From: an uncultured virus (IMG/VR IMGVR_UViG_3300042894_007218)
Lineage: Duplodnaviria > Heunggongvirae > Uroviricota > Caudoviricetes
Strand: one strand, 5' to 3'
Length of the DNA: 64,000 bases
IMG/VR virus record: IMGVR_UViG_3300042894_007218
Below the pieces are notes generated by a model. The model saw nothing but the letters and a program-made list of their open reading frames with translations, was not told where the DNA came from and did no database searches. The position numbers and the translations under genes are program-made. Positions 15,023 through 63,488 of this stretch are shown here, one piece after another (the stretch's first letter is position 1; each line of letters opens with the position of its first letter).

Positions 15023-15066
15023 ACAACAGACATATTTTAATATATAAATAAAAAATAATTTGTGCT

Positions 15067-15339
15067 ATGAGTTCAATGAAAGAGGCGGCAATTAGAGATT
15101 ATGTTTCTCGTATTGATTTTAAAAATGATGACTGGAAACTATCTAAAATCAAAGAAGATATGCGTAAATTCTTAGGTGAAGAACCAGGAATTGACGTTAT
15201 TTACAAAAAAGATGTTATGATTAACGAAGTAACTGGTAAAGCTCAGGAGATAAAAGATATTGACAAAGTACAAATTATATTTTTTGATACTGATGAAAGA
15301 TTCAAAAAGATTGAGTTTACAGTAAATGAAATTTTATAA
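15067..15339 (+). CDS. Hypothetical protein
   Basis: 90 aa ORF in tightly packed operon. Confidence 0.55.
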   Translation: MSSMKEAAIRDYVSRIDFKNDDWKLSKIKEDMRKFLGEEPGIDVIYKKDVMINEVTGKAQEIKDIDKVQIIFFDTDERFKKIEFTVNEIL

Positions 15340-15341
15340 TT

Positions 15342-15554
15342 ATGAAGATCGAAAACTATTACTTGGATTTAGAAAAAGTTAATTCTTTGTCAACAAAAGA
15401 AGAAAAAGAACAAATACACAGATATTATATGGATATGATGCACTCTTTCACCGAGGGTAGAAATTCTATAGGAATGTCAATATTTAACACTTTAAATCAG
15501 TCTGACTATCTTAAAGAAATTAGATCTGAAAAAATTGATAAAGTATTATCATGA
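15342..15554 (+). CDS. Hypothetical protein with C-terminal RSEKIDKVLS motif
   Basis: 70 aa ORF, ATGA overlap with next gene. Confidence 0.55.
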   Translation: MKIENYYLDLEKVNSLSTKEEKEQIHRYYMDMMHSFTEGRNSIGMSIFNTLNQSDYLKEIRSEKIDKVLS

Positions 15555-37944: not shown

Positions 37945-38218
37945 AATACTTTTGTTTAGTTTTCTATTTAGTTTAAGTCTTTATTCACAAGACACCACTA
38001 AAATTAAAAGAGAATATTTAATGACTGGAATTTTTTCAGCAACTGCTTCAATTCTACCTTATCATGTTGCTAAAGAAACTTATGTGTATAATAAAGAAAA
38101 TACATATTCTTATATTTTTACCGGTGTCTGGTTTTCTTTTGGATTGGCGTTAGATATCAATGCGACTTATAACTTCATACAATATCATAAATTAAAAAAG
38201 AAATCCGTATCTTTGTAA
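37931..38218 (+). CDS. Small membrane/secreted hypothetical protein
   Basis: Signal-peptide-like N-terminus and hydrophobic segments. Confidence 0.5.
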   Translation: MTTIKILLFSFLFSLSLYSQDTTKIKREYLMTGIFSATASILPYHVAKETYVYNKENTYSYIFTGVWFSFGLALDINATYNFIQYHKLKKKSVSL

Positions 38219-38219
38219 A

Positions 38220-38447
38220 ATGAAAAAGAACGATATCGTTATTTGTGTTACGGATAAAATGTATGGTCAAAAGCAGACTCTTAAAATAGGTGAACAATAT
38301 ATTATCGTTGATGTAATCGAAATGTCTGAGAAAAAGATAGTTAATGTTTGTGATATGAATAAGAAACAATGTGGATTATATGATGATAGACATTTTATAC
38401 CTTTAGATGTTTGGAGAGAATTTCAACTAAGAAAAGTATTAAACTAA
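38220..38447 (+). CDS. Small hypothetical protein, C-terminal REFQLRKVLN motif
   Basis: 75 aa; TATCTTTG at 38208-15 immediately upstream. Confidence 0.55.
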   Translation: MKKNDIVICVTDKMYGQKQTLKIGEQYIIVDVIEMSEKKIVNVCDMNKKQCGLYDDRHFIPLDVWREFQLRKVLN

Positions 38448-42876: not shown

Positions 42877-45800
42877 TTATAAGTTATAATTTTGGTTTTG
42901 ATTTGATTGCACTGGTTGACCAATTGACGTTGTAGAAATTGAACTTAAACCAAAGTTTTCTAATTGTGTAATAAACTGTGGCTTATTTGGTACAGTTTTG
43001 TTATGATATTGTAAATCCCAAGTTGATCTGAATATAAAGAAGTCTTCAAAATCATATCCAAATTCATTTAACATTGGATACATTGATTTGTAGTCAACAA
43101 GTTCATTTAATTTTAAGACTGAGCCATTTTCATTAACTTTTCTAAATTTTCTTTCTTTAATAATACCAAAGTCGGTAAGTGTTGTATCAAATTTATAATT
43201 ACCTGGTAATGAGAATTCAGATTCTTTTGAAAAGATTTGAATATCATAAAAAAGTGGCATGTAATAACCTGTATATCTGTAAAGTATATCATATTGATAA
43301 TTTTTATTACCGTGTAAGTTTTCAAATACTTTTGGTGGAAATTTGTTATCAGTTATTGAATAAGCAATTGGAACTCCACTATACCAATTTAATTGGTCTA
43401 ATGTTTTAATCTTTGAGTTGTTCAACTTTTTTAATGGTTTCAATTGCGATGGTGTTTCAAGTGCGATATAATTCAGTGACTTTAATTTCACTCTCAATTC
43501 ATCTGGTGTTTCACACTTCAGAATGTACGGTAAATTAGTAATGCTGCTATCATAACTATAAGTTGAAATATTTCCTACTTCATCTATTACTGTGTATTTT
43601 ACATAATCAGTAAATCCGTATTTATTTGATAGGTCATTAATTGCTTGAATAAAGTTATAAGCTGTTAGTTTGCCATATAGTTCTGAATAAATTGCATCTC
43701 TTTCAATATTTTTAATATTCGGAAGAGTATTATCATTAATCGCTATGTTAACGAAAACATTTTTCCATTTTTTATTTATGTAGATATTTATACCATTTTC
43801 TAAAGTTGAATTTGTGAAATTACTTTGACAAATATAATATCTATTATTCATCTCAATTATTGGATTATTTGTAGATGTGTAGACTAAATTAGTATCAGGA
43901 ACTAAACTATACACTTTTGTCCAGTAAGGCGATGAACCTGGTGTCTCACCCGCTTCAATACTTAGTGCGTTTGATATGTAGATTGTTTCATTGTGTACTA
44001 CAAGCTCATTCGAAGTTAGTTGATAAATCGTACTAGGATTCCATATGTTTATAGGTTTCCATTTTGGATTACTTGGCTCGGTTGTTTTTTGCCAGAATTG
44101 TTTAAATGTTTTTGTCGCGTTTAATGTTTCATACCAAGGTTTTATATATTCTGGTGAAAAATTATTACTTGCTGTTAATGACTCGTACCAATCGCCTTTA
44201 AATAAAACGACATCACCTAAGCTATAACCTACAAAACTTTTGGCTATTTCTGGGTTCCAAAAATCAACACCCGTTAGATCGTAATGATAGTAATATTCTC
44301 CATTATTGAAAATATAGTCTCCTATTGAATAGGTTACGCCTAATAATCCAACTGATTTTTGTGGTGACCAAAAAATGTTTCCAGTTGGATCATAGTAATC
44401 CCATTCTGTTAGGTTGTGAGGTGCTGACTTTATTTTCTTACCCCAAAGTTGTACTATAGGTTTTTGTGAAGTTATCTCATCAATATAAACATTTGATGTG
44501 TAAAGAACATCTTCAAAAACTACTATTGATGAAGTTGCGTATTCTTTATCCATCTGCCATTGTTCGGCAGTCTTCCACTCTAAATCATTTGAGGTAAAAT
44601 TATCTGTGTGACATATACTCCCTGTGCAACCAATTGATAAAGACTTTGATTTAAAATATGAATTATATGAAAGATTAGCAATGCTTACATTAACCCAACC
44701 ACTACCCACTGGATAGTCACCTGTTTCATCTAAGTAAGCTAATTGTGAAGATGGTGTACCTGATATAAATGTTGTCCAAAGTTTCCACTTTGTGTCTATA
44801 TCATCCCAGAGTGCATAAGCAACAGGTGATGTGTTTGAATAAAGAGTATAGTAAAATTTAGAATTATAGTATGTATTTGATTTAGTTGCAATATATTCAA
44901 TTGAATTAGTTGGTTGTGTTAGTGTAAAATAAATTGGTGCAGTAGTTAAATCATCATTTAAAGCAATACTATTATCAAAGTCCCAATTAGGCTCGTCATA
45001 AATTGTATAACTTCCTGTGAAACAATTTGATGTTATTTCTACTACATCACCTGGATTTAAAGTTTGTAAATAATATTGTGGTATAGAAATTCTATTTTCG
45101 AGTTTAGAAAAACAAACATCACAAAGTGATAAAGTTCCAGCAATTTGATTTGTGACTTCATCTACTATTACTAAATAGACATATGGCATCGATACTGTTG
45201 CTGATACTACTTTATATGAAGTTGTTGCGCCAAGAATATTCAAATACCATCCAACGTAATTTGTTAGAGTTAAGTCATCTGAAAAATAAGAACCACTTGG
45301 TGCATTCCAAGTCAACATACAACTTGGTGGTGTGGCGTTAAAACAAACTGTGTCTATAATCTTTTGTTGAATTTCTAAATTAAAACAAGTTTCTTGTGTA
45401 AAATCTTCTTTGTTTTCCGATAACAATATCGAAAATTTATAATCTTCAAAGGTGTTTGAGTTTTTCACATTTATATTTTCTATCTCACCTGATGAATTTA
45501 ATTTAACGCTTTCAACATCATATAATCTAAATTCAATTCCTCTAAACAAAGAGATATTTGGTATAGCGGAATCTCCTTTATTAAATTGAGAAAACTTTTT
45601 AACATTTTTTGAAATTTGACCAGCGTTGAATTTACTCTTTCTTTCAAAGAATGAAGTAAAGTAATCAAATGAATAAGTTGCAGATGAAGTTCCTACTGAG
45701 TATGTTGATATATTTAAATATTTATCTAACTCAAATTTGTAAGAATTGTCAATACTTACATCGTTTATTTTTTCCACATGTAAACTGTGATGTAAATAAG

Positions 45801-54891: not shown

Positions 54892-56184
54892 ATGAATATT
54901 GAAAGTATTGTAAGAACAGCAGTGGAAAGAATTAAATCAACTTGGGGTTTGCCTGAGCAAGGTTTTATTGCCGGAGGATCGATTGCCAATTTAGTTTGGG
55001 AATTAGTCTCCGGTAAAAAAGCCGTTGTTAATGATGTTGATGTTTTTTTGTTTGATGGTGTTGTCGATGGAATAGATCCATCTGATAAAAAATCTCTTTT
55101 CAAATATCAAGAAAAAGAAACAAAATTTTGGGAAGATTATACCGGAATGAGATACTCTTCTATCACAAAAGACTTTTATACTATTGAAAGTTCCGAACAC
55201 GAAGGAATGTTCAATAAGGTAAAGTATAAATCTAATAAACCAGATACTGATATTATTCTTAGGTCTTTTGATATCAATGCAACAAAAGTTGGTTATTCAA
55301 TCGAAGAAGATAAGTGTTATTGGACGCCTGAGTTTGAAGAATTTTTAAATACCGGCGAGTTGAAGGTTTGTAATACTATGACACCTGCCCATACCGCAAT
55401 TAGAATTGTTAAAAAACAAAAAGAATTAGATTGTAAATTAGACCACTTTGAGATTGATTTGCTTAAACATGCAATTGAACATAGATTTAGTGATGCAATT
55501 CGTTACAAATTTAAAAGTAGATATTTTGACATCTATAATCAACATATTGACGTATTGGAAAAAGATTTTCTAATTAAAAGAGATAATTTTACAGAAGAAT
55601 ACATACGATTAAACTTCAATGAAGAGACCTGTATTTATTATTTAGAGTCGGTAATCAATTCCACTACACTTGATGATAATGTTGAGTTTGTTTATGGAAG
55701 AGAAGTTTTTAATGATGAAAATTTAAGAAAAATTCATACTACACAAGAATTTCTTTTTTATATGAGAAATATCTATGGTAAAGATATTCTTCCGGAATTG
55801 TGGTCAAGACTTTATTTTTTCTTTACTGATAAATCATATGTAGATTGTCAACCAACTGAAGAGGAATTAGGTCTGATTAGTAGATTAGGAAAATATGCTC
55901 CTAACTCTATTGATAATTTAAAAGGAAAAAAATTATCTGAGCAGATTAAATTAGTTAAATGGGTTTTAGAAAAATATGAAGAGGACCCAATTGTTGCAAT
56001 TTCAATTTTAGAAAAACACAAATTATCTCAAGAACTTTTAGATGAACACGATTTATTTTTACTTGAACTTACAGTTAGAAAACAGATAGTTAATGATACT
56101 CGTGGCAAGGTAAATAAGGTTTTAGGTATAAATGAGAAAATAAAAGAAGATTCACCTATAAACAATCCAGACTGGTGGGACTAA
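54892..56184 (+). CDS. Nucleotidyltransferase-fold protein (CCA-adding/poly(A) polymerase head-like)
   Basis: FIAGGSI, NDVDVF (DxD), FDINA, R..K motif. Confidence 0.55.
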   Translation: MNIESIVRTAVERIKSTWGLPEQGFIAGGSIANLVWELVSGKKAVVNDVDVFLFDGVVDGIDPSDKKSLFKYQEKETKFWEDYTGMRYSSITKDFYTIESSEHEGMFNKVKYKSNKPDTDIILRSFDINATKVGYSIEEDKCYWTPEFEEFLNTGELKVCNTMTPAHTAIRIVKKQKELDCKLDHFEIDLLKHAIEHRFSDAIRYKFKSRYFDIYNQHIDVLEKDFLIKRDNFTEEYIRLNFNEETCIYYLESVINSTTLDDNVEFVYGREVFNDENLRKIHTTQEFLFYMRNIYGKDILPELWSRLYFFFTDKSYVDCQPTEEELGLISRLGKYAPNSIDNLKGKKLSEQIKLVKWVLEKYEEDPIVAISILEKHKLSQELLDEHDLFLLELTVRKQIVNDTRGKVNKVLGINEKIKEDSPINNPDWWD

Positions 56185-57109: not shown

Positions 57110-57544
57110 ATGAGTATAGTAAATAATAGAAAAGCATATTTTGAGTATCATATTCTTGAAGAATTTGAAGCTGGAATTGTGCTTTTAGGTTCGGAAGTAA
57201 AATCTATCAGAATGGGTAATGTTACCTTAACTGATTCTTTTATTTACTTAAAATCTGGTGAAGTGTGGATTAAGAATTTTAAAGTTGCAAGATATAAACA
57301 AACACATCTTTCTGAAAAACATGAAGACAATAGAGAAAAGAAATTGTTACTTACAAAGACACAGATTATAAAAATATCTCGAATGATGGAAGATAAAGGT
57401 GTAACTTGTGTTCCGCTTCAAGTCTTTACTAAAAACAATAAATTAAAAGTAAAAGTTGGTGTTGTGAAGGGTAAGAAACTTTATGATAAAAGACAGTCTA
57501 TCAAAGAACGAGATATCAAAAGAGAAATGCAAAGAGGTTTATAA
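57110..57544 (+). CDS. smpB: SsrA-binding protein SmpB
   Basis: NRKAYFEY...EAGIVLLGSEVKSIR, R.KKLLL, GKKLYDKR. Confidence 0.93.
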   Translation: MSIVNNRKAYFEYHILEEFEAGIVLLGSEVKSIRMGNVTLTDSFIYLKSGEVWIKNFKVARYKQTHLSEKHEDNREKKLLLTKTQIIKISRMMEDKGVTCVPLQVFTKNNKLKVKVGVVKGKKLYDKRQSIKERDIKREMQRGL

Positions 57545-57545
57545 T

Positions 57546-57926
57546 ATGAGTAAACGAGAAGACTATGAGCAGTTATTATCTGAACTGAAATCAGCTCAAA
57601 ATGAAGAAGATGTCATTAAAAGCATCACCAATATAATTAAAGGATTTACTTCTGATTATTACAAAAGTGACCTTTATGAAAATCCATATTTTAATTCATT
57701 GGTTCCGGAAATAAAAGAAACTATTTCTAATGAGTTGATTGATATAAAATCCACTCTTAAAGAGGAAATCGCAGCGATTAACAATGAGATTATGAATTTA
57801 AATAGTAAGGGTATAACTTCTATAAATGACCCGGATATTTCAAAACTTCGACAATTAAAAAAAGATTGTTTACTACTTATAAAAGAGTTGGATGATAGAC
57901 TAAATGATTTAATTCATTTATATTGA
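57546..57926 (+). CDS. Hypothetical coiled-coil protein
   Basis: Start moved to 57546, just after the smpB stop. Confidence 0.5.
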   Translation: MSKREDYEQLLSELKSAQNEEDVIKSITNIIKGFTSDYYKSDLYENPYFNSLVPEIKETISNELIDIKSTLKEEIAAINNEIMNLNSKGITSINDPDISKLRQLKKDCLLLIKELDDRLNDLIHLY

Positions 57927-59546
57927 TTTTAAAAAAGTTCTTATTCTGTTTATCTTTTCTAAATCTTTTTTATAATCATCGTCTGAATATTGGTCTTTAT
58001 ATTGATCGTAGTAATATTCCATTTCTTCTGGATATCTAAATCCACTCATACATTCTCTTACTTTATAGTCTAGTACGTTTCTACTCATTTTTATGAAATC
58101 ATAAACAGATTTAATTTTTGTTCTTAATAACCAGAGTTCGTCAATTGAGTTAATTTTTTTCTTTGTTAATGTTTGATTAATTTCTAAACCTAATTTAAAT
58201 AATTCATCATATATTTTTTTGAGTTTACTATCACCTTTTATGAATTTCTTAGTTTCTTGAAATTTCACCAACTGTTCATAGTAATTTTTTGTTCTGCTTT
58301 TATATTGGTCTTTAATCCTATTTACATAATATGTTTTATCACTATCATCCGCATCTACTAAATTATAGAGGTAATCAATGAAAATTGATATGTCTGACCA
58401 GTCAGGTCTTTGTAAGTAGATAGAGAAATAACTAAATTCTTGTGCTAAGTGTTTATTGACAATTTTTTCCAGTTCAAAAAATTCAGTTTCTGTAATTTTT
58501 AAAGACACGACTAATTTTTGAATATATCTTTCAATATTCATTTTTTTAATTTCTGCATCAGTCATTAACTTAGTTGCACCTTCTTTTTCTGATCTTCTTT
58601 GTTGTTTTGTTTCAGATGGTTTTTCAAAATATGGAGCATCCGATTCAGGATTTATTAAATCATCAAAATAAAGAACAAGTGCAAAATCAGCCTTTTCTAA
58701 GACAGAAGTTGTCATAGAACTACCTCTTCCCCAATTACTAAATGAATACCTATTACTTAGTGGTAAATTCCATTCAAATGGATCTTTTTCCTCTTCTGGT
58801 TGATCTTCGTCTTCATTTTTGACTGGTGGTTCTATATAATGTATTTCTTGATCGGATGGTCTCCAAAAGTGTAATTTGCGGTGGTCGTTACCCATCTCAT
58901 CATTATCAAATAACCACCAACTTAACTCACCATATTGTGTGTAGTTTCTCCAATCAGAACCATCAGGTATTGAGCCTGGTGATACATTTTGAATAGCGTA
59001 TGTTCTATTATTATCTGGTTTGTCTACATAGATTTTTGCTAGTGTTATTGATCTTCTAGATGAAGAATCAAATTGACCAATAACTGTATCACCAGTTTTA
59101 AGTTCGTAGTAATTAGTTACAGGCCAAATTTCACCGGTTGTAGTAATATTTTCTTTTATATGGTCCATATCAGATTCATTAAACTTTTGAGTATCTCTAA
59201 AACCGTGATTAGTTGAGTATGATTGATTTCTATCTCTTCTTTGATTACCAGTTGCTGTGGTTCCTAAAAATCCATCTTGTAGTGAAAACCAAAATTTTAA
59301 TACCCAGATACCTTTTGAGTTGGTAACATCTTTGTCATTCTTTAAAAGTAGTGCTTTTTTTGCATTTAAATATTTTATGTTTTCGTCAGAAATTTGGTCA
59401 ATTGGATAATCAACATTTGTCATAAAATCTCTCAATGTAGAAATAAAACTATCCGAAGATTTTGTTCCTACTTTATCTTTAAGGAATTTTAGAGTACTAG
59501 ATATACCTTTTGCTTTGAAGGCTTCGTATAACTTTAAATATTTCAT
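57918..59546 (-). CDS. Hypothetical protein with MKYLKLYEAF N-terminal motif
   Basis: 542 aa; AATATATA 5 nt upstream. Confidence 0.6.
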   Translation of the reverse strand: MKYLKLYEAFKAKGISSTLKFLKDKVGTKSSDSFISTLRDFMTNVDYPIDQISDENIKYLNAKKALLLKNDKDVTNSKGIWVLKFWFSLQDGFLGTTATGNQRRDRNQSYSTNHGFRDTQKFNESDMDHIKENITTTGEIWPVTNYYELKTGDTVIGQFDSSSRRSITLAKIYVDKPDNNRTYAIQNVSPGSIPDGSDWRNYTQYGELSWWLFDNDEMGNDHRKLHFWRPSDQEIHYIEPPVKNEDEDQPEEEKDPFEWNLPLSNRYSFSNWGRGSSMTTSVLEKADFALVLYFDDLINPESDAPYFEKPSETKQQRRSEKEGATKLMTDAEIKKMNIERYIQKLVVSLKITETEFFELEKIVNKHLAQEFSYFSIYLQRPDWSDISIFIDYLYNLVDADDSDKTYYVNRIKDQYKSRTKNYYEQLVKFQETKKFIKGDSKLKKIYDELFKLGLEINQTLTKKKINSIDELWLLRTKIKSVYDFIKMSRNVLDYKVRECMSGFRYPEEMEYYYDQYKDQYSDDDYKKDLEKINRIRTFLKSI

Positions 59547-59563
59547 AAAACTATATATTAAAA

Positions 59564-59594
59564 ATTGTTTATTAAAAACTTTTTTTTAACTTTG
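59564..59594 (+). promoter_or_regulatory. Bacteroidota sigma-A promoter driving the structured RNA/yqeY unit
   Basis: ATTG (59564-67), 19 nt spacer, TAACTTTG (59587-94). Confidence 0.6.
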
Positions 59595-59602
59595 TATAAA
59601 AT

Positions 59603-59997
59603 TAAAGAGACATCAAAACAAGAGTTTCGAGAATGCGTAAAGAAACAAGTTATCAAACTTCAAACGCTTATGTGTGAGTTTTGATGTAATTATGGTGGTA
59701 AGTAGCTGACAAATAAATTAACACTCTTATTAAAAATCAGTGAACCACCTTGTATGATATACTATATGATAAAATACAAGAGTGTAGATATTGAAATTTG
59801 TGTTGGATGAATATATCTGTAATTATTAGAAAAAACAAACAACACAAAGAGAGATTTAAGAGCAGAATGGTAACACTGCTCAACCAAGGCGAAAGCACAT
59901 TAAAAGGCAATCCTAAGTGATGAGGTCACTAAAAGTCAAGATACTATAGGTTCTAGGGTTCCGACCATACTTGACAGGCGTTCCAAAACTCTCTTTA
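59603..59997 (+). ncRNA. Large structured non-coding RNA of unknown class
   Basis: No long ORF; many helices, two candidate pseudoknots, GNRA/UNCG loops, complementary 5' and 3' ends. Confidence 0.65.
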
Positions 59998-60020
59998 TTT
60001 AATAAAGAAAAATTAAAAAA

Positions 60021-60455
60021 ATGATAAAAGAACAAATTAACAAAGATTACATGACAGCGTTCAAATCAAAGAATACTGTTGCCAAAAATTTACTTTCAGT
60101 GGTTAAAGGTGAAATACAAACTCAAGAAAAAAATACTGGAGTTGATAATTTGTCTGATGAAGATGTACTTAAAATTCTTCAAAAGTCTGCTAAGTCTTTA
60201 CGTGAAACTATTTCATCTTTAGAAAAAACACAAACAGGAATGTATTTTTCAAATGATTTAGTTTCAGCAAGAGAAGAATTGAGTATTATTGAATCTTATC
60301 TACCAAAACAAATGTCTAAAGAAGAAGTTACTCAAAAAGTTACCGGTCTTATAAATTCAGGTATCACTCAAATGGGCGCTATTATGAAGGAATTTGCTCA
60401 ACTACCCGCTGATAAAAAAATGGTATCAGAAGTAGTAAAAGAAATCTTAAATTAA
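60021..60455 (+). CDS. GatB/YqeY domain protein
   Basis: I..D...A.K, L.DEDV..IL.K..K, E..IIESYLPKQMS.EE, MG.IMK. Confidence 0.85.
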   Translation: MIKEQINKDYMTAFKSKNTVAKNLLSVVKGEIQTQEKNTGVDNLSDEDVLKILQKSAKSLRETISSLEKTQTGMYFSNDLVSAREELSIIESYLPKQMSKEEVTQKVTGLINSGITQMGAIMKEFAQLPADKKMVSEVVKEILN

Positions 60456-60458
60456 TAT

Positions 60459-61715
60459 ATGTATATCAATTTTACTGAAATTATTGAAAGGTGGGGTAAA
60501 CCTAAAGGTGTCGTCCATATTGGTGCTCACCTTCTTGAAGAAAGAGAGGAATACTTAAAGCACAATCTTACAAATACTATATGGGTAGAGGCAAATCCTA
60601 CTACTTATCAACAAATATTAAATCTTAATATCAGTAACGAAGAAAAAGTTTTTAATCATTGTATCACTGATAAAGATGATGAAACACATACTTTTCATAT
60701 TACTAATAATGGTCAATCCTCATCAATTTTAGATTTACAAAAACACGAAGAATATCATCCGCATATTTTTGTTGTTGATAACATCGAAGTTCAATCTAAA
60801 AGAATGGATACATTAATTAACCAGTATTCTATCGATATTTCAAACTATGATTTTCTTAATTTAGATATACAGGGTGCTGAATTACTTGCTTTGAAGAGCT
60901 TTGGTGATTTAATAAATAATTTCAAATATATTTATACCGAGGTTAATATAAATTATCTTTATAAAGATAATGCGTTAATGTCCGAAATAGATGATTATTT
61001 AAAAAAATATAATTTTATACGAGTGGAAACTGTTATGACTGAAGCTGAATGGGGTGATGCTCTTTATGTTAAAGAAGACATCACTGATAATAAAAAACTA
61101 ATTTTTGATGTTGGCGCTCACCATGGTTTGTTTACTGATGTGTGTAAGGAGAGATTTCCTGATGCTAAAATTATTTCAGTTGAAGCAAATGAAGAACTGT
61201 GGGGTAATCTACATCTTAAGTATGAGTTCGATCCAACTGTAGTTGTTATAAACTATCTGGTTTCGGATGTAACTGCGGATTTTAAAACTTTTCATATTAG
61301 TAATTATGACCAAATTTCAACTGCGTCAGAAGACTGGATTGAAAATTCTAGATTTAGTGGTCACAATTTTGATAAAAAAGTCGGTGTTGTTACTGTAAAT
61401 TTAGACAGTTTAATTAAAATTTTTGGTAAGCCTGATCTAATAAAAATTGATGTAGAAGGTTATGAGTATGAAGTCATTGGTGGTCTAAATCAAAAAGTAG
61501 ATGAAATTTGTTTTGAGTGGGCAGAAGAGCAGTATGAGAAAATAAATTTAACTTGTCAAAAATTACAACAACTCGGATATAAAAATTTTGGATATATACT
61601 TGGAGATGAGTATTTAAAAAGACCTGATACATTCACCACTTGGGAAACTTCGGATTTTCACAACATAGTCAAACCTGAAGAAAAAGATAAATGGGGAATG
61701 ATTTGGGTCAACTAA
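60459..61715 (+). CDS. Tandem FkbM-family methyltransferase (two domains)
   Basis: HIGAH...VEANP...LDIQGAEL and DVGAHHG...VEAN...IKIDVEGYE. Confidence 0.82.
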   Translation: MYINFTEIIERWGKPKGVVHIGAHLLEEREEYLKHNLTNTIWVEANPTTYQQILNLNISNEEKVFNHCITDKDDETHTFHITNNGQSSSILDLQKHEEYHPHIFVVDNIEVQSKRMDTLINQYSIDISNYDFLNLDIQGAELLALKSFGDLINNFKYIYTEVNINYLYKDNALMSEIDDYLKKYNFIRVETVMTEAEWGDALYVKEDITDNKKLIFDVGAHHGLFTDVCKERFPDAKIISVEANEELWGNLHLKYEFDPTVVVINYLVSDVTADFKTFHISNYDQISTASEDWIENSRFSGHNFDKKVGVVTVNLDSLIKIFGKPDLIKIDVEGYEYEVIGGLNQKVDEICFEWAEEQYEKINLTCQKLQQLGYKNFGYILGDEYLKRPDTFTTWETSDFHNIVKPEEKDKWGMIWVN

Positions 61716-61730
61716 AAAATAATTGTTTTT

Positions 61731-62234
61731 ATGTTGAACTATGTTGAGATATTTCAAAAATATGGACAGCCTAATGGAGTGATACACTGTGGTTGTCAAT
61801 TATTTCATATCAGAAAATTATATTTAGCTTATGGTCTGTTTAATACTATATGGATAGAACCTCAACAATTTTTTTATGAATATGGTTTAAATTTGATTAA
61901 CGGTACTGACGAAAAGTTGTATGATTATCAACTAACTTCTGAAAATACGTTATCAAAATTGTTTACACAAGAAAATCTAAATATAGAAAATTATAATTAT
62001 ATACATTTATCTTTACCTATCTATATTAGTGGTTTGGATATTTTCAACTCAAATATAGATAATTTTAAATATATTAGTATAGAGGTAACTCAAAATATCC
62101 AACATGAACACACAGATTTAAGTATTGTCAAAGAATGGTTTGAAAAAAGAAGGTACAAACTAATTGAAAGAAAATCAGTTGATAATGTCGGACAATTGTT
62201 TTTTGTTAAGAAAAGAAAATATACTAAAAAGTAA
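61731..62234 (+). CDS. Degenerate FkbM-like methyltransferase paralog
   Basis: N-terminus mirrors the upstream gene (YGQPNGVIHCG..NTIWIEP, FKYISIEV) but lacks the DxxG.E motif. Confidence 0.5.
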   Translation: MLNYVEIFQKYGQPNGVIHCGCQLFHIRKLYLAYGLFNTIWIEPQQFFYEYGLNLINGTDEKLYDYQLTSENTLSKLFTQENLNIENYNYIHLSLPIYISGLDIFNSNIDNFKYISIEVTQNIQHEHTDLSIVKEWFEKRRYKLIERKSVDNVGQLFFVKKRKYTKK

Positions 62235-62995: not shown

Positions 62996-63068
62996 GGAAT
63001 GGTGGCAGATTAGGTAATTGCGCTGGACTGAAAATCCAGAGGAGTGGGCTCGATACCCACCCGTTCCA
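62996..63068 (+). tRNA. tRNA-Phe(GAA)
   Basis: Acceptor ggaatgg/ccgttcc; anticodon arm ctgga-ctGAAaa-tccag; no encoded CCA. Confidence 0.9.
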
Positions 63069-63078
63069 CAAAAAATAT

Positions 63079-63154
63079 GATCTCGTAGCTCAGCAGGTTT
63101 TAGAGCACCTCACTTTTAATGAGGGGGTCGTGGGTTCGAGCCCCACCGGGATCA
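63079..63154 (+). tRNA. tRNA-Lys(TTT)
   Basis: Acceptor gatctcg/cgggatc; cctca-ctTTTaa-tgagg; GGTTCGA T loop. Confidence 0.93.
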
Positions 63155-63156
63155 CT

Positions 63157-63229
63157 GTGAATGTAGCTCAATTGGTAGAGCGCTTGATTGTGATTCAAGA
63201 GGTAGCGGGATCGTAACCCGTCATTCACC
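63157..63229 (+). tRNA. tRNA-His(GTG)
   Basis: Acceptor gtgaatg/cattcac, discriminator C; cttga-ttGTGat-tcaag. Confidence 0.9.
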
Positions 63230-63233
63230 AAAT

Positions 63234-63304
63234 ACGTCATACAGACAAGGTGTCGGTCAGGTCTCCAAAACCTCGACGGCTGGGTTCAATTCCTAGATGG
63301 CGTG
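63234..63304 (+). tRNA. tRNA-Trp(CCA)
   Basis: Acceptor acgtcat/atggcgt; aggt-ctCCAaa-acct; ctggg-ttcaatt-cctag; atypical D arm. Confidence 0.8.
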
Positions 63305-63309
63305 CTAAT

Positions 63310-63382
63310 AGTTTCATCGTCTAACCGAATAGGACACACGGCTACGAACCGTGAAGTGAGAGTTTGAGTCTTTCTGAAACTA
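63310..63382 (+). tRNA. tRNA-Arg(ACG)
   Basis: Acceptor agtttca/tgaaact; cacgg-ctACGaa-ccgtg; atypical T loop tttgagt. Confidence 0.8.
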
Positions 63383-63390
63383 CAAAATAA

Positions 63391-63477
63391 GGAGAGTTGG
63401 TAGAGTGGTTGATTACACCGGTCTTGAAAACCGGAAAACTTGAAAGGGTTTCCAGGGTTCGAATCCCTGACTCTCCT
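63391..63477 (+). tRNA. tRNA-Ser(TGA)
   Basis: Acceptor ggagagt/actctcc; ccggt-ctTGAaa-accgg; long variable arm; GGTTCGAATCC. Confidence 0.93.
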
Positions 63478-63488
63478 CTAAATTTTAC

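Follow-up and report, generated by a model that had tools for sequence, protein, structure and literature searches.

The third largest ORF-free stretch (counting ORFs of at least 100 aa) in the window, that is, the whole 64,000-nucleotide DNA of an uncultured virus analysed here (IMG/VR record IMGVR_UViG_3300042894_007218), lies near smpB and just upstream of yqeY. The original prediction, which took it for the largest gap without a gene, placed there a structured RNA of ~400 nt. The locus raises two questions: whether this stretch is an RNA gene, and what its product might do beside smpB and yqeY.

A conserved RNA gene upstream of yqeY

Positions 59601-59997 on the plus strand of the window are a genuine conserved non-coding RNA gene (Table 1). 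The homologue search recovered 40 distinct full-length copies, found in large viral contigs and in lake or marine contigs, 61-88% identical to the window copy and with a fold that covaries among them; the predicted structured RNA between its two neighbours is confirmed. The RNA is about 390 nt long, its start being placed by a promoter motif and its end by the last conserved helix and a T-rich run. A 24-mer served to fish 41 metagenome copies and is invariant among those 41 by construction; it varies in four copies retrieved with other patterns (L076, L077, L082 and L179). In bacterial and archaeal genomes, an exact-match search with an invariant 20-mer of the RNA gave no matches. Two candidate homologues (L025 and L027) were rejected, having only a 21-mer in common with the RNA and being tRNA arrays of unrelated, GC-richer contigs. 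The carriers are one clade of huge phages, with hosts probably among Bacteroidota. A short version of the RNA, ~225 nt, is found in LR756502.1, where the core alone is kept and the 5' pseudoknots are absent.

The motif TAnnTTTG, which we take to be the Bacteroidota -7 box, occurs in the matching position in 30 of the 40 copies and fits the promoter of its own proposed for the RNA; scans for sigma-70 promoters and simple terminators yielded nothing beyond chance. Compared with the neighbouring genes, the RNA is abundant in RNA libraries: library contigs from four studies span only the RNA (59640-60013), and in run X15 the contig depth is 45-195 over the RNA versus 2.3 over a flanking gene and 0 over yqeY, these data being contigs, which cannot give transcript ends and in which the non-coverage of yqeY is not counted as proof.

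Table 1. Features of the RNA locus and the two neighbouring genes (positions in the window).
Feature	Positions	Strand	Evidence or remark
smpB, 144 aa, full length	57110-57544	+	PF01668, E 1.8e-52
Promoter-like motif TAACTTTG (TAnnTTTG)	59588-59595	+	invariant alignment columns
RNA gene	59601-59997	+	ends approximate; conserved across 40 distinct full-length copies
Variable 5' domain, closed by H1 (59610-19 with 59678-87)	59610-59687	+	covariation
Pseudoknot A	59694-59785	+	covariation, four helices
Pseudoknot B	59786-59846	+	covariation, helices 6 and 7
Conserved 3' core, closed by AAGAGAG 59847-53 with CUCUCUU 59989-95	59847-59995	+	covariation
Hairpin GAGCAG/CUGCUC, invariant loop AAUGGUAACA	59860-59881	+	stem covaries
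Variable hairpin, loop GAAA or GAUGA, longer in some copies	59887-59898	+	copy comparison
Tertiary helix AAUCC 59909-13 with GGGUU 59956-60	59909-59960	+	100% paired
Hairpin AGUGA/UCACU, loop UGAGG	59916-59930	+	covaries in L082 (AGUGG/CCACU)
Helix GUCAAG 59935-40/CUUGAC 59970-75 around a variable linker and hairpin	59935-59975	+	covariation
yqeY, 144 aa, directly downstream of the RNA	60021-60455	+	PF09424, E 2e-21

Fold and coding capacity

The fold comprises 77 base pairs and contains at least four pseudoknots. Covariation was assessed on 40 distinct homologues for the whole RNA and on 45 core copies for the 3' core. In the alignment of 40, 92.9% of the cells are paired versus 37.0-44.5% when the partners are slid, and 38 pairs covary versus 26.7 +/- 1.8 in shuffles, with none of 500 shuffles reaching the observed value. 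The single-sequence fold has -89.4 kcal/mol and z -3.06 on the plus strand; z is -1.83 on the minus strand. Every helix listed in the original prediction can be located in the sequence at the coordinates given there, ttgtat 59750-55/atacaa 59774-79 lying in a poorly aligned part, and covariation backs H1, the outer stem of pseudoknot A (59694-98/59745-49), 59860-65/59876-81, 59916-20/59926-30 and 59935-40/59970-75. Both of its candidate pseudoknots are retained, with some trimming of the second.

In H1, eight of the ten pairs have changed on both sides. Inside the 5' domain, the hairpins GUUUC 59624-28/GAAAC 59642-46 and AAGUU 59647-51/AACUU 59656-60 and a possible loop pairing, GCG 59635-37/CGC 59665-67, were seen by eye; the inner elements of this domain vary among subgroups.

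Pseudoknot A has the stems GGUGG 59694-98/CCACC 59745-49 and GCUGA 59705-09/UCAGU 59737-41, and its loop ACACUCUU (59721-28) pairs with AAGAGUGU (59778-85), with two-sided changes. Its four helices (helices 2-5) are paired in 95.5%, 87%, 97.5% and 100%, each with both-side changes, and the joints UAAGUAG and UGAA are invariant. The stem of pseudoknot B, AGAUAU 59786-91/AUAUCU 59813-18, covaries within the second predicted candidate (59785-91/59813-19), five of its six pairs having changed on both sides; the loop UGUGUUG 59799-805 covaries with CAACACA 59840-46 (both-side changes in three of seven pairs), and the predicted helix 59797-805/59840-48 is therefore the second pseudoknot.

All seven pairs of the helix closing the 3' core have changed on both sides, yet it is paired in 75.9% on the 40-homologue alignment. 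Three partners had been suggested for the 3' end (59603-10, 59621-36 and 59846-53), among which the last, as 59847-53, is the one that covaries. The hairpin at 59860-81 has a 10-nt loop and not the predicted GUAA cap; bases 59868-74 of this loop can instead form pairs with the candidate partner GUUCCA 59980-85, U59871 being bulged (97-98% paired, both sides invariant). The stems GGGU/GCCC, GGAC/GUCC, GGUU/AACC and GC/GC were seen in the variable hairpin. At its third pair, the tertiary helix has UG (25 copies), UA (14) or GC (one). By eye, this helix extends to seven positions, with position 6 mismatched and C59962-G59907 as position 7. The helix GUCAAG/CUUGAC is 100% paired, with both-side changes in four of six pairs. 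The hairpin predicted inside it (ggt-UCCG-acc) exists with a better pairing, GGUU 59949-52/GACC 59963-66, which leaves GGGUU 59956-60 as the loop that pairs with AAUCC. A covariance model (R1) was built on the 3' core.

No conserved ORF crosses the RNA, and no convincing tag frame was found. Two short frames have their ends within hairpins, (C/R)NYG(G/S)K followed by a stop (59685-59705) and KGNPK followed by two stops (59903-59923); both overlap base-paired, covarying positions. Protein coding was rejected: indels of the variable hairpin (59887-59898), with lengths that are not multiples of three, interrupt the longest frame through the core (MVTLLNQGESTLKGNPK), and the AUG of this frame is not conserved.

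Linkage to smpB and search for tmRNA features

The smpB gene was found in 11 of the 11 carrier records searched, on the same strand as the RNA and 2-3.5 kb upstream of it; this count covers records other than those behind L042, L059, L082 and L085. In the divergent L082 and L085, the SmpB frame stops at base 333, with the RNA within about 10 nt after it and no yqeY behind the RNA, and in LR756502.1 the RNA is ~3.9 kb from smpB and directly upstream of yqeY. The tmRNA model RF00023 exceeded its cut-off in none of nine carrier records (W01, W02, G001-G006 and G013), four of which are at least 91% complete. Model R1, in turn, found the RNA in none of the four other SmpB-encoding huge phages tested, three of which (Lak-A1, Lak-B1 and LR756504.1) have a tmRNA that exceeds the Rfam cut-off and the fourth (LR756501.1) a tmRNA interrupted by a group I intron and located about 330 nt from yqeY, a neighbour common to the RNA. 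Across these 13 huge-phage records the pattern is one of mutual exclusion between the RNA and canonical tmRNA. To our knowledge, SmpB has no well-established job without tmRNA. Since the RNA is found only in SmpB phages without tmRNA, it may be a new partner of SmpB; as the carriers belong to a single clade, only a few evolutionary events may underlie the linkage as well as the either/or pattern.

A separately encoded tRNA-like piece was considered as well and rejected: the sub-threshold RF00023 matches of 130 nt that relatives have 4-6 kb downstream proved to be tRNA genes with a 60-70-nt insert and no G3.U70. All four tmRNAs found by Rfam or by inspection in related huge phages were missed by ARAGORN; published ARAGORN-based counts of phage tmRNAs are therefore likely to be too low.

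Searches of the window region and 16 homologue loci with RF00023 and the permuted models RF01849-RF01851 gave no match at E up to 10; checked on five Bacteroidota genomes, the tmRNA models scored 110-139 bits in all five. ARAGORN reported no tmRNA, nothing consistent at relaxed thresholds and no tRNA-like domain at 80%. A tRNA-like fold at 59911-77, called only at the 70% threshold, was poor, stood among dozens of false calls and was not retained. The family profile gave nothing significant by nhmmer against five Bacteroidota tmRNAs (best within-tmRNA E 80) or three phage tmRNAs (E 1.1). Pairwise local alignment to five tmRNAs raised only one copy, L169, above shuffles (28 versus a maximum of 25), and was set aside given the non-significant profile searches. 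The motif TAAGTARGCT, which follows the tag in tmRNA, has no match in the RNA and its sole match in the window is at 44731.

The structural comparison is mixed. The acceptor-like helix 59956-62/59907-13 is internal, being closed by a 42-nt loop, and its 3' strand is followed by UAAG and not by CCA, in agreement with the predicted lack of canonical tmRNA ends. In 14 of 40 rows, A-U stands in for the G.U at position 3 of this helix, and in one row G-C does. No T-arm was found beside the acceptor-like 3' strand: the hairpin found there, whose loop is GAAA or GAUGA, lies 7-10 nt from the helix, with AUUAAAAGG between them. The tmRNA 5' motif GACCGGNNTTGACAGG, present in four of the five fetched tmRNAs, has one match in the window, at 59963-78 (+), with two mismatches (0.04 expected), a resemblance that was noticed first and tested afterwards and whose UUGAC part covaries as a helix strand, unlike a single-stranded D-loop. 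A ring of pseudoknots with a long interrupted helix, as in tmRNA, is present (pseudoknots A and B, the closing helix and the loop-tail pairing). The order of elements also fits a circular permutation of tmRNA: first would come the 5' knot, then the stop-codon hairpin, the knots, a strand of the long helix, the 3' strand of the 7-position helix, the 42-nt loop, the 5' strand GGGUUCC, the stretch resembling the 5' end of Bacteroidota tmRNA and the other strand of the long helix.

Possible roles and comparison with known systems

Our tentative main reading, to which we give a probability of about 0.45 on sequence comparisons, is that the RNA may be an SmpB partner in the place of tmRNA. Among the three roles offered by the original prediction, the very divergent SmpB partner draws the most support, from the 11 smpB-linked records, the adjacency in L082 and L085 and the either/or pattern; the tests that define a tmRNA speak against it, and the phage SmpB could also work with host tmRNA. 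As an SmpB partner, the RNA would be a stable, separately promoted molecule acting in trans with the phage's own SmpB, where related phages use tmRNA. Its 3' core (~150 nt) would be the putative SmpB-binding, tRNA-like part, with a compact double-pseudoknot fold made of the long interrupted closing helix and the 7-position helix stacked on a 4-bp helix. The 5' pseudoknots, which one relative lacks, may form an accessory ring, in line with the description of PK2-PK4 of tmRNA in PMC3968760. From these comparisons we infer SmpB binding, action on the ribosome and descent from tmRNA by circular permutation.

A more specific proposal, which we consider doubtful, is a circularly permuted tmRNA descendant in which a new breakpoint separates the long helix from the first pseudoknot, the T-arm is missing, and a pseudoknotted acceptor arm is closed by, or cut in, the conserved 42-nt loop. 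Together with the phage SmpB, and perhaps YqeY, such an RNA would enter stalled host ribosomes and either add a very short non-degradative tag or release them without a tag; if true, this would be a phage-made ribosome rescue that spares the phage's unfinished proteins.

It is possible, if somewhat unlikely, that the RNA acts in trans independently of SmpB, either directed to tRNA or the ribosome together with YqeY or structural in the manner of ROOL and GOLLD, with smpB a mere neighbour in an island of translation genes. This would agree with the absence of significant similarity to any tmRNA and of the features that define one, with the tRNA genes 3 kb downstream of the RNA and with the gene order in LR756502.1; the yqeY gene follows the RNA in 38 of 40 copies (all except L082 and L046), a linkage at least as tight as that of smpB, and in a single clade a shared gene order can be inherited. 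However, an RNA unrelated to SmpB leaves unexplained why it is exactly the carriers that have no tmRNA and yet keep a full-length SmpB, and why L082 and L085 keep the RNA right after smpB without yqeY; the ROOL and GOLLD models do not match, and yqeY is present also in the four tested huge phages without the RNA.

A cis-acting leader of yqeY, whose fold would sense a ligand, tRNA or protein and set read-through or translation, is improbable. This part of the original prediction fits the adjacency (38 of 40 copies): in 32 of the 40, the yqeY match starts 35-76 nt from the GUUCC motif, and the window has no further TAnnTTTG between the RNA and yqeY. In L030, L047 and others, a GC hairpin that covaries, with a T-run after it, precedes yqeY and could be an expression platform; lying between the RNA and yqeY in one subgroup, a hairpin and T-run are also counted against a leader. 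So are the copies without a downstream yqeY (L082/L085 and L046), a tRNA gene between the RNA and yqeY in L037/L040, and RNA-library contigs that end before yqeY in four runs (contig data only). No terminator/antiterminator alternative is supported, as the 3' strand covaries with 59847-53 alone, and four or more pseudoknots over 390 nt would be far larger than known leaders. A T-box was rejected: the UGGUGGUA stretch lacks conservation, its covariation is with an internal partner and Rfam gave no match.

Least probable of all is an SmpB decoy, a non-chargeable tRNA-like RNA that would shut down host trans-translation by tying up host SmpB or blocking stalled ribosomes: the lack of a chargeable end and of a tag, the core-only version in LR756502.1 and the gene of phage DS6A noted in PMC4131195, which cites work in which a molecule of this kind, almost restricted to the tRNA-like domain, was a strong inhibitor of tmRNA, perhaps by SmpB titration, would suit it, but the phage's own full-length smpB beside the RNA would counteract titration.

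If the RNA is a partner of SmpB, the SmpB system can use an RNA without canonical tRNA-like ends. One-piece and two-piece tmRNA would then be joined by a third design for such an RNA, and phages could be adjusting the host's ribosome rescue to their own advantage. Otherwise, the RNA is a new large class with solid covariation, common in lake and marine huge phages.

Against Rfam 15 (4227 models), the window has only five tRNAs at the gathering threshold, the RNA region at E up to 10 has two chance-level matches only, and 16 homologues have no common match; because there is no Rfam match, the RNA is by model not a ROOL, GOLLD, tmRNA, RNase P or group I intron RNA. ROOL and GOLLD are large ornate phage RNAs near tRNA genes, and the RNA resembles them in being large and ornate and in its place in phages near tRNA genes. 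Only size and phage origin favour the proposed ROOL/GOLLD-like style. The RNA is smaller than ROOL and GOLLD and has a specific linkage to smpB and yqeY. Some details recall what we take to be features of RNase P RNA, namely a P4-like long-range pairing with a bulged U after ACAG and joints GUAAG/UGAAC similar to J11/12-J12/13. RNase P RNA was rejected: RF00010 matches none of the whole records of five relatives at E up to 10 and nothing in the window, and the order of elements differs.

From two-piece tmRNA (RF01849-RF01851) the RNA would differ in its breakpoint, judging by what we presume to be the gene layout of these forms. Two-piece forms have fewer knots, according to sections of PMC3968760. 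The gene of mycobacteriophage DS6A is described in parts of PMC4131195 as hardly anything beyond tmRNA's tRNA-like domain; like the RNA described here, in particular its core-only version in LR756502.1, it is a phage RNA tied to the SmpB system with no coding function, whereas its tRNA-like domain is recognisable (PMC4131195), in the present RNA neither a T-arm nor acceptor ends can be recognised, and the phages carrying this RNA also encode SmpB.

Compared with tmRNA itself, the RNA has no model match, T-arm, free-ended acceptor stem, CCA, conserved position-3 G.U or convincing tag frame, and its putative acceptor strands are joined by a highly conserved 42-nt loop instead of a variable spacer. 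It is like tmRNA in its length of about 390 nt, its series of H-type pseudoknots, the dispensability of the pseudoknot part, a conserved domain closed by a long interrupted helix, a gene beside or near smpB and its abundance in RNA libraries.

Locus and fold of the RNA gene

That the RNA gene is a real feature is strongly supported. The gene-free stretch around it, which had been described as the largest in the window, is the third largest by a simple criterion (ORFs of 100 aa or more); two other stretches without such an ORF, 15023-15550 (528 nt) and 37945-38410 (466 nt), have no Rfam match at the gathering score. The adjacent 542-aa ORF, whose start lies 40 nt from the promoter motif of the RNA, is transcribed in the opposite direction; in the window it separates smpB from the RNA, and it is missing from L082 and L085, the only carriers compared. 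Just 3' of yqeY lie a gene for a double-domain FkbM-type methyltransferase (60459-61715) and, after it, a shorter ORF that seems related (61731-62234). The translation-gene island also includes a 430-aa ORF (54892-56184) with weak similarity to nucleotidyltransferases (PF06042, E 9e-4, below the cut-off), which may encode an enzyme for CCA addition or tRNA repair.

Features of the RNA, its neighbourhood and the split tmRNA gene of a related phage
Feature	Position	Strand	Remarks
smpB	57110-57544		PF01668, E 1.8e-52
542-aa ORF	57918-59546	minus	no Pfam or PHROG match
Gene-free stretch with RNA	59547-60020		between 542-aa ORF and yqeY
Variable 5' domain			closing helix 59610-19/59678-87
Pseudoknot A	59694-59785
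Pseudoknot B	59786-59846
Conserved 3' core			closing helix 59847-53/59989-95
Hairpin	59860-81		loop can pair with GUUCCA 59980-85; both sides invariant, so candidate pairing only
Tertiary helix	59909-13 with 59956-60		AAUCC with loop GGGUU of small hairpin 59949-66
yqeY	60021-60455		PF09424, E 2e-21
Five tRNA genes	62996-63478
LR756501.1 split tmRNA gene	L197:440-1060, about 718140-718760	minus

For the plus strand the folding energy is -89.4 kcal/mol (z -3.06), a value matched by none of 100 shuffles; for the minus strand z is -1.83. Covariation among homologs was found in an alignment of 40 full-length copies, for which 77 pairs in 14 helices were supplied as the structure for counting. Standard pairs fill 92.9% of the cells, compared to 37.0-44.5% after a shift of the 3' partners by 1-3 columns; both-side changes occur at 38 pairs (26.7 +/- 1.8 in shuffles) and in 245 cells (89 in shuffles), neither value being reached in 500 shuffles. 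In the 45-sequence alignment of the core, 98.9% of the cells are paired, compared to 18.6-38.3% when slid. The helices of the original prediction stand as drawn in all cases but one, the inner ggt-UCCG-acc hairpin, which was redrawn, and covariation supports both pairings offered there as candidate pseudoknots; the second one, tagatat/atatctg, forms the hairpin stem within pseudoknot B. The 5' domain is unlike between subgroups. In the tertiary helix, 25 rows have UG as the third pair, 14 have UA and one has GC; the helix could reach a length of seven positions and would then be stacked on the 4-bp stem of the small hairpin. At position 59940, contigs of two RNA-library runs (X15 and X18) continue after GUCAAG with about 26-30 different letters and then rejoin at GAGAGGTT, apparently a variant of the family whose variable linker has gained a hairpin, like that of locus L050.

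Relatives, promoter motif and transcription

In a distant BLASTN search of phage records, a single entry matched: LR745206.1, from an uncultured phage (634,780 bp), with 77% identity over 69% of the query. Using exact conserved words, we found the RNA on seven IMG/VR contigs (75-483 kb) and on 41 metagenome contigs; the latter copies were fished by a 24-mer, so that its invariance among them is by construction, and it varies in copies found through other words. A looser pattern yielded more divergent copies (L076, L077/L087/L088 and L082/L085), and a profile search identified a short copy in the 642-kb phage LR756502.1, only about 225 nt long, in which the core alone is kept. Among the 40 distinct full-length copies, identity to that of the window is 61.4-88.3%, and the DNA runs containing the RNA stretch come from lakes and other fresh water. 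In bacteria and archaea (185,579 species, one genome per species), no exact copy of an invariant 20-mer of the RNA was found. Two viral contigs of higher GC content have a spacer of about 125 nt separating tRNA genes (L025:677-803 and L027); all that it has in common with pseudoknot A is a 21-mer, GGTAAGTAGCTGA-AAATAAA, which may be a coincidence or a small module present in both.

The invariant TAnnTTTG at 59588-95, which we read as a putative Bacteroidota -7 promoter box, is present at the matching place in 30 of the 40 copies; the ten others form one subgroup, whose upstream DNA lies mostly outside the excised stretch. This reading agrees with the Bacteroidetes hosts predicted for the largest huge phages (PMC7162821). 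Contigs from four RNA libraries of four studies span 59640-60013 only and in none of them cover yqeY; in run X15 the depth is 45-195 over the RNA versus 2.3 for the contig over a neighbouring gene, values that, coming from assembled contigs, reflect presence and relative abundance and not transcript ends.

Known RNA classes, SmpB and candidate roles

The RNA, originally regarded as an orphan, is absent from Rfam 15: at the gathering score, a search of the whole window with all 4227 families finds five tRNAs and nothing else. At E up to 10 the RNA region has two chance-level matches, and no Rfam match is common to 16 homologous loci. ARAGORN detected no tmRNA in it, standard or permuted, even at lowered thresholds, and no conserved protein frame was found. 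RNase P was rejected, as RF00010 finds nothing in the whole records of five relatives. The accessible portions of the literature on huge-phage and other phage tmRNA, SmpB and permuted phage tmRNA yielded no description of the RNA.

All 11 searchable carrier records encode smpB, on the same strand and 2-3.5 kb upstream of the RNA throughout; in L082 and L085, which come from contigs of 198 and 225 kb, base 333 is the last of the SmpB frame, some 10 nt separate it from the start of the RNA, and yqeY is absent downstream. The tmRNA model RF00023 has no match over the cut-off in any of nine carrier records, while its sensitivity control, five Bacteroidota genomes, scored 110-139 bits in every case. 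The comparison set comprised other huge phages with SmpB related to that of the window. Here tmRNA exceeds the cut-off in Lak-A1 (54.0 bits), Lak-B1 (47.3) and LR756504.1 (65.2), and in the 735-kb phage LR756501.1 a group I intron interrupts its T-loop (RF00023 21.1 bits, Intron_gpI 96.1 bits), the acceptor after the intron pairing GGGCUCG with CGGGUCC and having G3.U70. Model R1 of the RNA's conserved core, which gives 74.5 bits in the positive control LR756502.1, finds no RNA in these four phages. By these R1 and RF00023 results the RNA and tmRNA are mutually exclusive in 13 SmpB-encoding records, which may rest on a single evolutionary switch, since the carriers form one clade.

The three tmRNAs over the cut-off (L185, L186, L187) are 357-410 nt long, that of LR756504.1 having an unusual 8-nt T-loop; the LR756501.1 gene has its own TAnnTTTG motif and a long tag frame ending LVLA. 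ARAGORN overlooked all four, the first three at default settings, and counts of huge-phage tmRNAs based on it may be too low; the huge-phage paper (PMC7162821) used ARAGORN to assign tmRNAs. In three relatives, tRNA genes of about 130 nt (L192:159-288, L193:176-306 and L194:155-282) lie 4-6 kb downstream of the RNA; they have a 60-70-nt insert within the D-arm region, the acceptor GGGGAUG/CAUCCCC and a normal T-arm, and their scores are 31 bits with the tmRNA model and 45 bits with the tRNA model.

The best single explanation, with a probability of roughly 0.45, is that the RNA works with SmpB in the place of tmRNA; among the three original readings, this one is favoured. A rather unlikely alternative is a trans-acting RNA that belongs to the translation-gene island and is unrelated to SmpB. 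A leader of yqeY, also proposed originally, ranks lower and is improbable. Of 40 distinct copies of the RNA having at least 150 nt of downstream DNA, 38 have yqeY after them (exceptions L082 and L046). A search of five other huge phages found yqeY in every one, far from tmRNA in three of them and only about 330 nt from it in LR756501.1. Least probable, by analogy with the idea attached to the DS6A element (PMC4131195), would be a decoy for SmpB.

Comparison with tmRNA

A motif from four fetched Bacteroidota tmRNAs, GACCGGNNTTGACAGG, which was chosen after the resemblance to tmRNA had been seen, has one match with two mismatches in the 64-kb window (0.04 expected), within the RNA and on the right strand. 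Its UUGAC part covaries as a strand of helix 59935-40/59970-75, which counts against tmRNA, because a single-stranded D-loop would not covary in this way. Profile searches revealed no significant similarity of the RNA to Bacteroidota or phage tmRNAs. Unlike tmRNA, it has no T-arm and no free or CCA-bearing acceptor end, and a G.U at position 3 is not conserved; its only frames ending in hairpins are two very short ones, both overlapping paired positions. Given these differences, the null searches and the caveats on the motif and the frames, we do not file the RNA as a tmRNA.

Most likely it is a new kind of SmpB-associated RNA, which resembles tmRNA in its size and pseudoknot chain, in the long interrupted helix closing its conserved domain, and in an order of elements that fits a circular permutation of tmRNA. 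The dispensability of its pseudoknot part is a further likeness: in tmRNA, tagging does not require PK2-PK4, and the number of knots is reduced in two-piece forms (PMC3968760).
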